Sequence record: NC_054912.1
Source of the DNA: Escherichia phage vB_EcoM_F1
Direction: 5' to 3' (one strand)
DNA: 64,000 bases
Shown: positions 1,959 to 6,437 of the stretch, piece after piece
Layout of the letters: every line of letters starts with the position of its first letter
How positions within the stretch are numbered: position 1 is the first letter of the stretch
The notes under the pieces: model-generated
Database searches by the model: none
What the model saw: only the letters and a program-made list of their open reading frames with translations
What the model was told of the DNA's origin: nothing
Translations under genes and position numbers: made by a program

Positions 1959-2414
1959 TTAAAAGAGGTTGTTCATTATTCGGTAAAGTGAAGGACCCAT
2001 CACATATTGCCACTGAGTACGAGGAATAAGAGCAAAAGCATCCATCTCTGGAATCATAACGCCATCTTTATTTTCAAAATAAGACTCGCAATGGCAATTT
2101 CTAAACATCTCATGCTCTACTGGAATCGTATAATAAAATAACTGTAAGTCTTTATTACTAGAATATTTAAATACACCTAGGTCTTCTAGAAGGTCTGGAT
2201 TATAATTGCTAAAACCGGTCTCTTCTAAGCATTCTCTTCGTGCTGCATCTAGTGCACTTAAATCAGAGTTTTCTACACGGCCCTTTGGAATATCCCAACG
2301 ATGTGCCATCATTCCAGGCTTACGAGAACCAGTAACCCGACCCATAAATAAATCTTTATCTTCTGTCATAAAGATAATACCAGCTGATAGTGTTTTCATT
2401 TTAATTTCCTGCAT
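1959..2414 (-). CDS. nudE: Nudix hydrolase (NudE/e.1-like)
   Basis: Nudix box GRVENSDLSALDAARRECLEETG; 151 aa; alternative start at second ATG (2399) has a better RBS. Confidence 0.85.
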   Translation of the reverse strand: MQEIKMKTLSAGIIFMTEDKDLFMGRVTGSRKPGMMAHRWDIPKGRVENSDLSALDAARRECLEETGFSNYNPDLLEDLGVFKYSSNKDLQLFYYTIPVEHEMFRNCHCESYFENKDGVMIPEMDAFALIPRTQWQYVMGPSLYRIMNNLF

Positions 2415-2587
2415 TCAGTGATAAAGTTATTTAAATTTTGAGTATATTTCTTTTCATCAAAAATCTTTTGCTGTCTGCGTAACCGCCATGGCATTTCAAT
2501 GAACATACGCCATATTCCTGATAATACTGCTGCTGTAAAAATATTAACAAGTATGGTTAAAAGAACCCAATCTCCTATTCTGTCCAT
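2396..2587 (-). CDS. small membrane protein (one N-terminal TM helix), unknown function
   Basis: 63 aa ORF, ATG start, hydrophobic segment WVLLTILVNIFTAAVLSGIW; C-terminus ECRKLK encoded by the downstream gene junction. Confidence 0.5.
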   Translation of the reverse strand: MDRIGDWVLLTILVNIFTAAVLSGIWRMFIEMPWRLRRQQKIFDEKKYTQNLNNFITECRKLK

Positions 2588-2883
2588 TGGATTTTTATAA
2601 AAAAGTAAAATACGAACGATGATATAGGAAGACTAATGATATACCACAGAAGAACCTTCTTATCTGTGAACCATTCAGCATTCGTTAACTTAGCGCGACC
2701 GTTTTGAATACATACGAACTTATCATCTGTTACAGTAAATGGCTTAGCTGCTTGATACCCCATTCTAAACTCCCTAATTAATCGTTTCTTTGTATCTTCA
2801 GAACAGCCGCTCCAGTCAACTCTATCAACTGAAATGCCATCGTCCCCATCATCTAAATCATACCAGCGAGTTTTTAAAATCAT
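2575..2883 (-). CDS. hypothetical protein with C-terminal TM helix
   Basis: 102 aa ORF, ATG start overlapping upstream stop (ATGA). Confidence 0.5.
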   Translation of the reverse strand: MILKTRWYDLDDGDDGISVDRVDWSGCSEDTKKRLIREFRMGYQAAKPFTVTDDKFVCIQNGRAKLTNAEWFTDKKVLLWYIISLPISSFVFYFFIKIQWTE

Positions 2884-3242
2884 TTAATTTTCCTACAATC
2901 ACTCACAAACTCTTCCATTGATTCTTTTTCAATATAAGACATATAGCTATTATATTCCTTTAATTGTATTTTGTAATCCTTTTTTCTTTGCCAATTTATT
3001 TTAAAATTATCATAATGAAAATATAACATGGTACCAAAGAATGAAAATAATGAAATTGCTATAGTATAATGAAGTTCACTCCAAACTTCTATTATATTTA
3101 CTGTGCCGTCAATGTTTAAAATAAGACAGTCAATTAACAATCCAAAAAGACTACCCGCAAGAGCTGCAGCCAACGCCACAGCAAAAATTAAAAATGACTC
3201 AGGAAACGAATATTTGACTTTATTTAGTTTTGGCTTTTGCAT
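2880..3242 (-). CDS. small membrane protein (two predicted TM helices), unknown function
   Basis: 120 aa ORF, ATG start; hydrophobic stretches; C-terminus DCRKIK from conserved junction. Confidence 0.5.
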   Translation of the reverse strand: MQKPKLNKVKYSFPESFLIFAVALAAALAGSLFGLLIDCLILNIDGTVNIIEVWSELHYTIAISLFSFFGTMLYFHYDNFKINWQRKKDYKIQLKEYNSYMSYIEKESMEEFVSDCRKIK

Positions 3243-3616
3243 CGTGATTCCTTAACAAATTTCATAATTTCATCAAATTCATACGCAGCAAGTTTAAGCT
3301 GATGTTCCTTTTTAATCTTTTTACACTGTGCTTTCCAATCACGTACGCGTTTACGATAATGCCTTCCTTGATACCAGTATCCTACCCAATTTACAGGTAC
3401 TAATAAAAGTGGAACTATTAATGGAAGAATTAGCGTTGCTCCAAATATTACACCAGATTCAATATCAGTCATAACATCTATAACTATTCCGGCAATCAGC
3501 AGAATCACAAATGATACAGCTACCACAGGACCTATTAACACATCAGTAGAAATTATCTGACGCTTTAATTCATACTTCAACGGTTTACTTGGAAGGTATA
3601 GTGATGGTTTTGACAT
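3224..3616 (-). CDS. small membrane protein (two predicted TM helices), unknown function
   Basis: track ORF starts at TTG 3637; first ATG at 3616 preceded by AAGGAA RBS; hydrophobic stretches. Confidence 0.5.
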   Translation of the reverse strand: MSKPSLYLPSKPLKYELKRQIISTDVLIGPVVAVSFVILLIAGIVIDVMTDIESGVIFGATLILPLIVPLLLVPVNWVGYWYQGRHYRKRVRDWKAQCKKIKKEHQLKLAAYEFDEIMKFVKESRCKSQN

Positions 3617-4193
3617 ATTCTCTACATTCCTTAACAAATTTTTCTAGTAATAAATCGCTTTCAAAATTGGGATTTTCTACGAATTTATCAAAAAGATCAT
3701 CAACAATAGTTAAGATATTCTTTTTGCTAAGAATACGTTTATTTTCATGCTTCGTTTCAGAGTCAACTATAAGAGTAAAGAAATATTTCTTTCCCTGAAA
3801 TTTTACCGTAGTATCAATATAAAATAAATTTGACTTTTGTAAATTACGTTTAAACCATGCGTCACTTAAACTATAAACACCGAGATAATCAAAATCGTCA
3901 TTTAAATAACAAACTGTCCATTCAGGAGAAATGAAATCAGTAAATTCAACATCAAAATCACATGTTAATGAATGAATTGATTCAATACTGTTAATAAGTA
4001 TTCCAGGACGTATTAAAGACTTTTTACCTCTGGAAAATCTTCCAGAAAGACTTTCATTAGTTTCATATGAAGAACCCCAATAATAATTACGCCCTTCTGC
4101 CATACGTTTAAGAGCATTTAATAATTGGTCTGGAACATCAACTTGTCTTTGGAACTCTTCAAACATTGAATTGAAATCATTTTGCATTCTCAT
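3585..4193 (-). CDS. hypothetical protein
   Basis: 202 aa ORF, ATG start with GGAG RBS after a GC hairpin. Confidence 0.55.
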   Translation of the reverse strand: MRMQNDFNSMFEEFQRQVDVPDQLLNALKRMAEGRNYYWGSSYETNESLSGRFSRGKKSLIRPGILINSIESIHSLTCDFDVEFTDFISPEWTVCYLNDDFDYLGVYSLSDAWFKRNLQKSNLFYIDTTVKFQGKKYFFTLIVDSETKHENKRILSKKNILTIVDDLFDKFVENPNFESDLLLEKFVKECREYVKTITIPSK

Positions 4194-4214
4194 TTCTATT
4201 TACTCCAAGTAATA

Positions 4215-4228
4215 GGGGCCGAAGCCCC
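4215..4228 (-). other. GC-rich stem-loop (ggggc-cgaa-gcccc)
   Basis: inverted repeat read directly; near-identical 24-mer recurs at 45675-45698. Confidence 0.5.
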
Positions 4229-4234
4229 TTATCA

Positions 4235-4828
4235 TTATTTCAGAGAATTAATGTATTCCTGAACATCGGCAGAGGTAGTTTCAACCCCAGAAATATTACC
4301 ATTAAAGGTTTCAACTCGAGCAAGGGTATCTTCAATATCAACCTTAGTCAGTGCTGCAATTTCAACTACATCATCGGCAGTACTAATTCCAAGGGCATTT
4401 GCCGCACGAGTTTCACGGATATATTCCAATTTAACTGCAAGCTCTTGACGAGCATCATCTAACTCAACTACTTTCTTGGCGATTTCAATTCGCATTTCAG
4501 CATAACCGTCAGCCTTAGTAGTCAACTGCTCAGCTGTTCGACGATATAGTAAACCGAGTTTAGCATGCATTGTTACATCTTGACCTTCGGAAAGAAGTTT
4601 ACGAATTTCACGCTCTTTTGATTCAGCCTGTCGATTCTTTTCGACAATAAGTTCACGAATACGTTTTTCTTCGTTAATAGATTTAACAGAAGCAGTTTTT
4701 AGATCTTTAATTTTATCAAGTAGTTTTGCTGCTGCAGCAGTATACTGTTCTTCAACAGATAGATTTTTAGCCATAGCAGAACCAAGTTTAGTGCGAATAA
4801 ACTCAACAATTTTCTTCAGTGTGTTCAT
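4235..4828 (-). CDS. coiled-coil protein, PspA/IM30-like candidate
   Basis: 197 aa, all-helical composition, N-terminal amphipathic segment [15 protein letters not shown] resembling the PspA N-terminus; own early promoter. Confidence 0.55.
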
Positions 4829-5963: not shown

Positions 5964-6437
5964 TTATTTGATTTGTTTAGCAGACCAAATGCGGTCTTTA
6001 ATAATTTTTTGGATGTCTTCAACATACTCAAGAGAGTGAGCATGTGGGTTATCTTTGAAACTATAAGCACGAGCTAGTTTTTGGCCTTCAGTTTTGATTA
6101 CTAAAAGCTCTTTAAGGATAGCTTCATATTTGGAGATAATTCCTTTAACAATATTTTTCTCTTGTGCGACTTTAGGATCTGCTTTAGGAGCAGGTTTACC
6201 CGAAGCCTTTGCAAAAGCAGCGCCAGTAGCAACTAAACTTTTCCAGGCCATACTAACTGCATTTCCCGTAAATCCTTCCGCTTTCATGTCGCGTGCGAAC
6301 TGGAATCGTGATTCATCAGAAGCATCTTTGTAAGAATATTTACCCGCTGCAATGGCTGCTTTTGCGACAGCTTGAATTTCGGTGCTAGATGCTTCATTTA
6401 ACACCGCTTCATTTAAAAATTGAGTATATGATTTCAT
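5964..6437 (-). CDS. internal-protein-like protein with capsid-targeting-sequence-like N-terminus
   Basis: 157 aa; N-terminus MKSYTQFLNEAV resembles T4 IP CTS; Ala/Lys-rich; late promoter upstream; flanked by repeated terminators. Confidence 0.6.
   Translation of the reverse strand: MKSYTQFLNEAVLNEASSTEIQAVAKAAIAAGKYSYKDASDESRFQFARDMKAEGFTGNAVSMAWKSLVATGAAFAKASGKPAPKADPKVAQEKNIVKGIISKYEAILKELLVIKTEGQKLARAYSFKDNPHAHSLEYVEDIQKIIKDRIWSAKQIK

Follow-up and report, generated by a model that had tools for sequence, protein, structure and literature searches.

Overlapping genes joined by ATGA stop/start sequences, in which the Shine-Dalgarno (SD) sequence of the downstream gene lies inside the upstream open reading frame (ORF), are a common form of translational coupling in T4 and other phages. 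The hyperplastic regions of T4-type genomes also contain recombination cassettes known as PeSLs, which are intergenic and comprise sigma70 -35/-10 boxes, an AT-rich tract and a G/C stem-loop (PMC2839356). For indels of T4-like phages that do not involve PeSLs, the passage of PMC4122927 that cites Albertini et al. 1982 invokes deletion between short direct repeats. Here we describe a locus in a 64,000-nucleotide (nt) stretch of Escherichia phage vB_EcoM_F1 (NC_054912.1; the whole stretch is referred to as the window) in which four consecutive early genes, e.5, e.4, e.3 and e.2, appear to encode proteins that are alike only in a selected C-terminal tail, and in which the codons of that tail form near-identical repeats at the gene junctions. 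The locus combines known kinds of element, namely a short motif common to several proteins, junctions of the translational-coupling type and recombination at short repeats; for the last of these, deletion between short direct repeats is the nearest mechanistic parallel.

Between positions 1900 and 4250, the window is 100% identical to Escherichia phage vB_EcoM_FN (Tequatrovirus; hereafter FN) and about 95% identical to T4, from whose annotation the gene names were assigned. All of the genes concerned lie on the minus strand, in the order e.6, e.5, e.4, e.3, e.2a, e.2b, nudE and lysozyme e, and the repeats are borne by four successive junctions (e.5/e.4, e.4/e.3, e.3/e.2a and e.2b/nudE). The genes, tails and repeats are as follows, with protein lengths in amino acids (aa) and transmembrane segments abbreviated TM.

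3585-4193, minus strand: e.5, 202 aa, soluble (no TM segment), Pfam Phage_T4_Y06P; C-terminus ...LLEKFVKECREYVKTITIPSK-stop
3626-3641, minus strand: 16-mer copy 1 (AAATTTGTTAAGGAAT), coding for K-F-V-K-E in e.5, 10 nt upstream of the e.4 ATG (3616)
3621-3638, minus strand: e.5 tail codons, TTT GTT AAG GAA TGT AGA = F V K E C R
3224-3616, minus strand: e.4, 130 aa, Pfam Phage_T4_Y06O, 32-nt overlap with e.5; C-terminus ...EIMKFVKESRCKSQN-stop
3247-3262, minus strand: 16-mer copy 2 (AAATTTGTTAAGGAAT), in e.4; its AAGGAA (3248-3253) is the e.3 SD, 5 nt before the ATG (3242)
3242-3259, minus strand: e.4 tail codons, TTT GTT AAG GAA TCA CGA = F V K E S R (Ser variant)
2880-3242, minus strand: e.3, 120 aa, predicted 2-TM hairpin, e.4 paralog; C-terminus ...SMEEFVSDCRKIK-stop
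2892-2909, minus strand: e.3 tail codons, TTT GTG AGT GAT TGT AGG = F V S D C R
2881-2900, minus strand: 20-nt repeat GATTGTAGGAAAATTAAATG, with the end of the e.3 tail, SD AGGAAAA (2888-2894) and ATGA overlap with e.2a; left recombination site of the e.2 cassette
2575-2883, minus strand: e.2a, 102 aa, N-terminal part of e.2 (soluble domain and TM1), truncated by a frameshift
2396-2587, minus strand: e.2b, 63 aa, TM2 and cytoplasmic tail of e.2; C-terminus ...NLNNFITECRKLK-stop
2408-2425, minus strand: e.2b tail codons, TTT ATC ACT GAA TGC AGG = F I T E C R
2397-2416, minus strand: 20-nt repeat GAATGCAGGAAATTAAAATG, with the end of the e.2b tail, SD AGGAAA (2405-2410) and ATGA overlap with nudE; right recombination site of the e.2 cassette

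The 16-mer ATTCCTTAACAAATTT is present as exact copies at 3247-3262 and 3626-3641, with no third copy in the window even when two mismatches are allowed, and on the coding strand it reads AAA TTT GTT AAG GAA T, specifying K-F-V-K-E in e.5 and e.4 alike. The other pair consists of the minus-strand 17-mers TGCAGGAAATTAAAATG (2397-2413) and TGTAGGAAAATTAAATG (2881-2897), which extend to a gapless 16/20 match between GAATGCAGGAAATTAAAATG and GATTGTAGGAAAATTAAATG. These 20-mers follow the scheme GA(A/T) TG(C/T) AGG AAA (TTA/ATT) AAA TG(A), coding for [E/D]-C-R-K-[L/I]-K-stop in e.2b and e.3, and the degenerate pattern matches only these two sites in the window, against 0.02 matches expected from shuffled sequences. 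A first-pass annotation of the window had reported the identical 16-mer and the similar 17-mer junctions, and all of the sequences it quoted were found as described; the C-termini it listed were confirmed as FITECRKLK, FVSDCRKIK, FVKESRCKSQN and FVKECREYVKTITIPSK, each ending at a stop codon. Its ORF coordinates also stand, whereas the identities of the ORFs needed T4-based naming, and two of them, e.2a and e.2b, proved to be one split gene. Its proviso that the repeats might be no commoner than chance and lack conservation in relatives does not apply, as the repeats exceed expectation (2 versus 0.02) and the motif recurs in ten lineages.

At the protein level, all four proteins share a near-C-terminal F-[I/V]-x-[E/D]-[C/S]-R. 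The stricter pattern F[IV]xxC[RK], outside which e.4 falls as a Ser variant, has four matches in the six frames of the 168-kilobase (kb) FN genome, three of which are these tails and one of which lies in a non-coding frame. To compare the tails across T4-like phages, we fetched syntenic loci, mostly anchored on the well-conserved e.6, from ten lineages (Tequatrovirus, Mosigvirus, Gaprivervirus, Dhakavirus-like, Kanagawavirus, Jiaodavirus, Moonvirus, Biquartavirus, Ishigurovirus and Pseudotevenvirus RB43). In all ten of these Straboviridae lineages, one to four genes just downstream of e.6 carry the terminal motif. Across 28 loci, considering forward-frame segments of at least 50 aa, all 64 of the 64 strict matches lie 1-25 residues from the stop, and no match was internal.

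The fixed positions of the motif are written in these 28 loci with TTT or TTC for Phe, with ATT, ATC, ATA, GTT, GTG or GTA for Ile/Val, with TGT or TGC for Cys, and with all six Arg codons as well as AAA at the last position, while free variation is seen at the two x positions, which are K-E in the window and EQ, RN, QM, KY, NL, DY, HS or AK elsewhere. The 56 unique tails give the consensus hydrophobic(-3; 51/56)-[E/N/D]-x-F(54/56)-[I/V](56/56)-x-[E/D]-C(43/56)-[R/K](56/56), in which the Cys position is otherwise occupied by V, S, I or M. In the alignments of e.2, e.3 and the distant e.5 proteins, the tail is the most conserved 9-residue window, and it is well above average in the others. That the same fixed residues are written with varied codons, in the most conserved part of these proteins, shows selection on the peptide, and across T4-like phages the tail is kept by purifying selection on its amino acids. 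The first-pass annotation had asked whether the C-terminal residues are conserved as protein, independently of the junction nucleotides, and the answer is clearly yes. No description of a shared tail was found in the searchable literature on e.2-e.6; the tail common to the e.2, e.3, e.4 and e.5 families across the Straboviridae is previously undescribed.

The bodies that precede the tail are largely unrelated. Once the tail is removed, the tail-bearing proteins fall into at least eight BLAST clusters plus singletons. Profile comparisons with hhalign identify e.3 and e.4 as paralogs (E=3e-8 over the full length, 3.9e-5 without the tail), whereas e.2, e.3/e.4 and e.5 match one another over the tail only (10-30 residues). 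The Pfam families concerned, Y06M, Y06O and Y06P, are separate and uncharacterised; for e.3, unlike e.2, e.4 and e.5, no Pfam family exists. A replacement of the body at the e.5 position had been suggested by BLASTP of T4-type e.5 against VR25 gp145, which aligned the tail alone, and was ruled out by profile comparison, which ties both bodies to a Klebsiella/Aeromonas e.5-like cluster. Three e.5-position clusters that are unrelated by BLAST are joined through their bodies in this way, indicating that e.5 is a single fast-diverging family.

We consider it probable that the conserved protein tail is the primary feature of the locus, with the embedded SD sequences and the recombination being secondary to it and with the tail possibly serving as a cytoplasmic docking element. 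The gene overlaps of 4-32 nt force the SD and start of the next gene into the tail codons, with AAG-GAA supplying AAGGA and AGG-AAA supplying AGGA, and the same peptide, written under AT-rich codon bias and the need for an SD, yields near-identical 16-20-mers. A crossover within these direct repeats takes out or adds exactly one gene and restores tail, SD and start; e.2 in Tequatrovirus and e.4 in Dhakavirus-like phages are cases of such a cassette crossover. The tail would dock the e.2, e.3 and e.4 hairpins, together with soluble e.5, onto a common partner, for which e.6 would be the best candidate.

Several Tequatroviruses match the region in two pieces, and in PP01 e.3 abuts nudE; we therefore mapped the breakpoints. 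In UFV-AREG1 and PP01, the alignment stops at window position 2880 and restarts at 2425, the e.2 cassette being absent, and 30 nt align to both 2909-2880 and 2425-2396. The hybrid junction consists of GAG TTT GTG AGT GAT joined to TGC AGG AAA TTA AAA TGA AAA, i.e. GAT followed by TGCAGGAAATTAAAATGAAAAC, with an e.3-type left part and an e.2b-type right part, the crossover lying in the common TGYAGGAAA core. The e.3 protein of these e.2-less phages now ends in CRKLK, and the SD and ATGA overlap are intact. A 136-nt probe spanning the hybrid junction aligns without a break in at least 30 records (RB32, RB33, PST, PP01, Ozark, IME340 and others), whereas in e.2-containing phages it matches in two pieces, spanning 136 + 484 nt. 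The paper comparing PST with T4 does not mention the e.2 indel. The hybrid e.3/nudE junction without e.2 is also present in LR597657.1 (Escherichia phage T4_ev240), whose name implies an evolved T4 derivative.

An equivalent event affects e.4. The Dhakavirus-like L015, L017 and L019, which have no e.4, align to Gaprivervirus VR25 with a jump from VR25 2503 to 2828 and a 21-nt overlap. Their hybrid junction GCTAAAGAGGTTCAAAATGGAACGGCC corresponds to the e.5/e.4 junction (GCTAAAGGGGTTCAAAATGCGAACG) joined to the e.4/e.3 junction (ATCAAGGAGGTTCGTAATGGAACGG), whereby e.5 acquires the ...EVQNGTA end of e.4. As judged from these genome comparisons, the boundary repeats demonstrably serve the in-frame loss or gain of whole gene cassettes. 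UFV06 (L034) carries a natural 895-nt in-frame deletion, from window position 3524 to 2629, whose endpoints lie not at a junction repeat but at a 6-nt CCTGTG microhomology within TM segments. Its product is a 106-aa hybrid membrane protein comprising the first 31 residues of e.4 and the C-terminal part of e.2, with the FITECRKLK tail kept and e.3 lost; not every indel in the region therefore uses the junctions. Recombination between the two exact 16-mers would produce an e.4-less Tequatrovirus, and none appeared in the best matches of 502 records. In the Mosigvirus-like contig L011 (8852-9157 and 9845-10336), the homolog of e.2 (163 aa, ...RFITECRNLR) and an extra tail-bearing protein of 101 aa (...NFIKECRGK) are encoded 3-4 kb further downstream of e.3 than in T4, and tail-bearing cassettes therefore occupy differing positions by genus.

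These indels also bear on whether recombination might account for the resemblance itself, through shuffling or gene conversion that copies one tail-plus-junction segment among neighbouring genes without any selection on the peptide. Consistent with such an origin, the two natural cassette indels break within the repeats, giving e.3 the CRKLK of e.2b and e.5 the ...EVQNGTA of e.4. Furthermore, the closest pairs of tails differ by genus (e.5 with e.4 and e.3 with e.2b in Tequatrovirus; e.5 with e.3, at 17/18 nt, in Mosigvirus), which is compatible with occasional conversion, and the presence of one tail on unrelated bodies needs either module transfer or convergence. Against it, the same four residues recur with different codons across subfamilies without nucleotide identity in the tail, repeats of 16-30 nt are a poor substrate for conversion, and copying leaves unexplained why, in fast-evolving proteins, conservation is highest in the tail. 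Moreover, the probability of identical codons given an identical KFVKE is about 0.09 from codon bias alone and higher once AAG GAA is required, so that peptide identity, codon bias and the SD constraint jointly predict identical codons with a probability of about 0.1-0.16. The exact 16-mer thus needs no special mechanism. We therefore regard a purely recombinational origin of the tails as unlikely. The proposal of the first-pass annotation that the small genes were assembled by recombination at their junctions does not hold as the cause, since the tail persists at the protein level across genera while the nucleotides diverge; as a consequence it stands, with e.2 or e.4 missing exactly between look-alike junctions and a hybrid left behind.

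The junction repeats resemble PeSLs (2010, PMC2839356; Comeau et al. 2014, PMC4122927) in being short boundary repeats in a T4-like hyperplastic region, in including the SD and start of the downstream gene, and in flanking gene-sized indels between close relatives that leave one hybrid copy after recombination, here the presence or absence of e.2 and e.4. They are nonetheless not members of that class, as they contain no intergenic DNA, promoter or stem-loop. All four junctions overlap by 4-32 nt; no sigma70 promoter was found at 2397-2416, 2881-2900, 3247-3262 or 3626-3641, promoter-like sites numbering 18 against 14.3 +/- 3.8 in shuffled sequences; and no terminator-like site lies at the junctions. 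Unlike the intergenic, non-coding and regulatory PeSLs, these junctions code for a conserved peptide, and recombination between them is in frame and yields a chimeric tail. The likeness to deletion between short direct repeats is closer, in that the absent segment is bounded by two similar 20-30-nt repeats of which one hybrid copy remains. The differences are that these repeats are not chance homologies but are preserved by selection on the tail peptide and the SD, and that they lie exactly at gene boundaries, the events being cassette-exact and recurring at homologous sites in two genera.

The tail codons also contain the translation signals of the next gene. Neighbouring genes overlap by an ATGA at e.3/e.2a and e.2b/nudE, by 19 nt at e.4/e.3, by 32 nt at e.5/e.4 and by 13 nt at e.2a/e.2b. 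At the e.4/e.3 junction, the SD consists of the K-E codons AAG GAA, 5 nt before an e.3 ATG that lies within CGA TGC. At e.3/e.2a and e.2b/nudE, it consists of the R-K codons AGG AAA, 5-6 nt before the ATG and followed by the ATGA overlap, whereas the e.4 start has AAGGAA 10 nt upstream and a weaker GAGAA nearer. The long ORFs of the phage use AAG for 18% of their Lys and AGG for 3% of their Arg residues, and since these minor codons are used in both copies of each pair, synonymous choice is bent towards the SD. In distant phages, the SDs of overlapping downstream genes likewise lie within the tail (AAGGAG, TAGGAG, ATGGAG, AAAGAGG), at differing positions of the motif. The next start lies -7 to +38 nt from the Arg codon across lineages, and the motif is kept in three genes that are separated by 29, 67 and 243 nt from the next annotated one (pKp20, 102 aa; 44RR2, 262 aa; ZPAH1, 80 aa). 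This varying register, together with the persistence of the motif where there is no overlapping gene, argues that the peptide is primary and that the SD has been fitted into it.

The reverse relationship would be a pure nucleotide module, in which a conserved ribosome-binding or coupling cassette (SD, spacer and ATGA) is maintained and the similar residues are a passive by-product. Such a module would account for the stop/start overlap and the SD in the upstream tail at every junction of the window, for the AAG and AGG codons in both copies, and for the comparable location of SDs in distant phages. It does not account for the use of all synonymous codons at the F, I/V, C and R/K positions while the SD-forming x-x positions vary freely, nor for SDs drawn from different positions of the motif, with starts at -7 to +38 nt and the motif kept without an overlapping gene. 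We find this explanation improbable, and as a sole cause it is largely refuted. The shared translational-coupling module of the first-pass annotation is thus borne out in the stop/start overlap at each junction and in the SD formed from minor codons of the tail, but it does not amount to a single fixed nucleotide unit, as the SD/start register differs by junction and lineage. Both of its interpretations are partly right as consequences, and neither is the primary cause. The junctions resemble those of other coupled overlapping genes in their ATGA, 19-nt and 32-nt overlaps and in the position of SDs within the upstream coding sequence; ordinary coupling junctions, however, have no shared upstream peptide, whereas here a conserved peptide accommodates the SD in differing registers.

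Two further explanations invoke the peptide in a different capacity. Were the tail a C-terminal degron recognized by a host protease (ClpXP, Lon or FtsH), it would impose a common short lifetime on the four early proteins. The tail does lie at the C-terminus, on the predicted cytoplasmic side, and basic residues often come after it (CRKLK, CRKIK, VRRK, CRK), so that it superficially resembles basic C-terminal ClpX signals. However, up to 25 residues follow the motif (RB43, e.5 types), and the C-terminal degrons known to us act at the extreme terminus; we rate this explanation no higher than the nucleotide module. Alternatively, the nascent tail might stall the ribosome near the end of the ORF and promote termination-reinitiation on the overlapping start. 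In nearly all cases no more than about 40 nt separate the motif from the next start, and the motif is conserved as a peptide, as arrest peptides are, and the lack of an SD of its own in e.2b means that the operon relies on coupling at least once. A stalling signal is nevertheless hard to reconcile with a motif-to-stop distance of 1-25 residues, a motif-to-next-start distance of -7 to +38 nt or more, and at least three tail-bearing genes without an adjacent downstream start. Furthermore, the i, i+1, i+4, i+5 pattern with a hydrophobic residue at -3 corresponds to an amphipathic helix face and is unlike any arrest motif known to us, making pausing very improbable. Chance similarity, for which the GC content of 36% and the many short imperfect repeats of the region might be cited, is practically negligible given 0.02 expected versus two observed 20-mer matches, 64/64 C-terminal motif matches across lineages and the confinement of the motif to these C-termini among the coding frames of the 168-kb genome.

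Regarding the function of a tail conserved as a peptide, hydropathy and charge distribution point to an N-in/C-in membrane hairpin for each of e.3, e.4 and intact e.2, with a C-terminal region that is basic and cytoplasmic; e.4 is a predicted 2-TM hairpin. The conserved residues at -3, 0, +1, +4 and +5 fall on one helix face, and the helical hydrophobic moment is above that of shuffled controls (mean z 1.5; 3/18 tails do not exceed them). In a low-confidence AlphaFold2 (AF2) model from a shallow alignment (pLDDT 57.6), the tail of e.5 (181-196) forms a helix at the end of the chain, preceded by a disordered linker. That Cys gives way to S, V, I or M in the e.4 lineage favours packing over thiol chemistry. 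These features suggest that the tail may be a short amphipathic cytoplasmic docking helix that lets unrelated proteins bind one shared partner, and it resembles shared C-terminal docking peptides in that one short motif is found on several otherwise unrelated proteins. A role as a capsid-targeting sequence, raised by the FITE of e.2b and the MKTYQEFITEA of internal proteins, was dropped as a four-residue coincidence, membrane proteins being unlikely capsid cargo. Internal-protein-like ORFs lie at 883-1356 (start MKTYQEFITEA) and 5964-6437 (start MKSYTQFLNEA), with starts resembling the capsid-targeting sequence.

Small membrane anchors are known for proteins of the PspA family, as in PspB/PspC with PspA and LiaI with LiaH. 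The e.2, e.3 and e.4 proteins resemble such anchors in being predicted small membrane hairpins with cytoplasmic C-termini encoded next to a PspA/Vipp1-like protein, although Pfam and PHROG scans of e.2-e.5 revealed no similarity in sequence to PspB, PspC or LiaI. The neighbouring protein, e.6, is predicted to consist of an N-terminal helix and a long helical hairpin, and its ten best Foldseek matches in a structure search are Vipp1/PspA. It has no Pfam match at E<=1, and in a profile search against the PDB the Vipp1 matches are colinear over about 140 residues, but at non-significant values (E=1.5-3.4). The assignment of e.6 as a relative of PspA/Vipp1/IM30 (ESCRT-III superfamily) is hence only suggestive. 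As the upstream neighbour in every lineage, and as a PspA/Vipp1-like protein in a setting reminiscent of the small anchors that recruit PspA homologs, e.6 is possibly the best candidate for the partner of the tails.

The remaining features of the locus are the following.

4235-4828, minus strand: e.6, 197 aa, conserved neighbour upstream in every lineage
2592-2596, minus strand: homopolymer run in e.2, A5 in FN and T4 versus A6 in phages with intact e.2
1959-2399, minus strand: nudE (Nudix hydrolase), start taken as the SD-proximal ATGA at 2399

The two e.2 ORFs match successive parts of one profile, PHROG 2203 (166 positions), whose positions 1-103 match the 102-aa ORF and 106-166 the 63-aa ORF. 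Together with the A5/A6 difference, this identifies the FITECRKLK ORF as the C-terminal half of e.2, a gene that the loss of one A has frameshifted and divided into e.2a and e.2b. The reconstructed e.2 has 162 aa, is one unbroken ORF in most Tequatroviruses and, in its intact form, matches Pfam Phage_T4_Y06M. The T4 annotation gives 2575-2883 as e.2 (102 aa) and the e.2b ORF is absent from the wild-type annotation, whereas the T4T record names both halves e.2a/e.2b; e.2b is a genuine conserved coding region. Its ATG lies 13 nt ahead of the e.2a stop, without an SD of its own, and a -1 slip of tRNA-Lys on AUA AAA AUC would recreate the intact ...FFIKNPMDR... e.2 protein. The start of nudE is ambiguous, as the T4 annotation uses an ATG at 2414 (151 aa) that has no SD and lies within the E-C codons of the e.2b tail, whereas other annotations and gene callers use the ATGA at 2399 (146 aa), with AGGAAA 5 nt upstream; the true start is probably this SD-proximal ATG.

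The sole strong stem-loop, a perfect G/C one (AGGGGCCGAAGCCCCT) at 4214-4229, lies in the 41-nt gap between e.6 and e.5; it is called a terminator in some related records, and on the coding (minus) strand no T-run comes after it. The 3-5 small genes that come after e.3 in Mosig-, Gapriver-, Kanagawa- and Moonvirus share the ending W-[V/I/F/A]-x-S-S-x-x-C-stop, for instance GAWVSSSALC, GGWVSSSMEC and WQPSSC (L002 3231-4025; L003 3191-4441; L022 5716-6790 and 7130-7330; L024 6066-6835). They make up a second tandem family with a conserved extreme C-terminus, located where T4 has e.2 and nudE.

Beyond the corrections to annotation (the missing e.2b of wild-type T4, the frameshifted e.2 of T4 and FN, and the nudE start) and the flagging of e.6 as a possible phage homolog of PspA/Vipp1, these results bear on e.2-e.6, which are conserved T4 ORFans without assigned function. 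If four of their products have one cytoplasmic tail in common, it is probable that a single partner is what they act on or through, and the tail peptides would be a simple bait for it. The locus also demonstrates that one short stretch can be under three constraints, as a peptide motif, as an SD sequence and as a recombination site, and it extends the idea of modular shuffling in T4-type phages from intergenic promoter/terminator cassettes to in-frame coding junctions. The significance would be greater if the tail turned out to dock its proteins to a phage membrane module of the PspA/Vipp1 type. Tentatively, and as an unlikely extension of the reading favoured above, T4-like phages may carry such an ESCRT-III-like module of their own, in which e.6 would form the polymer, the tails would be docking peptides for variable anchors (e.2, e.3, e.4 and lineage-specific relatives) and soluble e.5, and the anchors would be exchangeable cassettes. 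Near-identical in-frame repeats would then flank each anchor gene because the docking tail encodes the next ribosome-binding site, and the locus would be the coding-sequence counterpart of PeSL shuffling, with function, expression signal and recombination site residing in the same 20-30 nucleotides.

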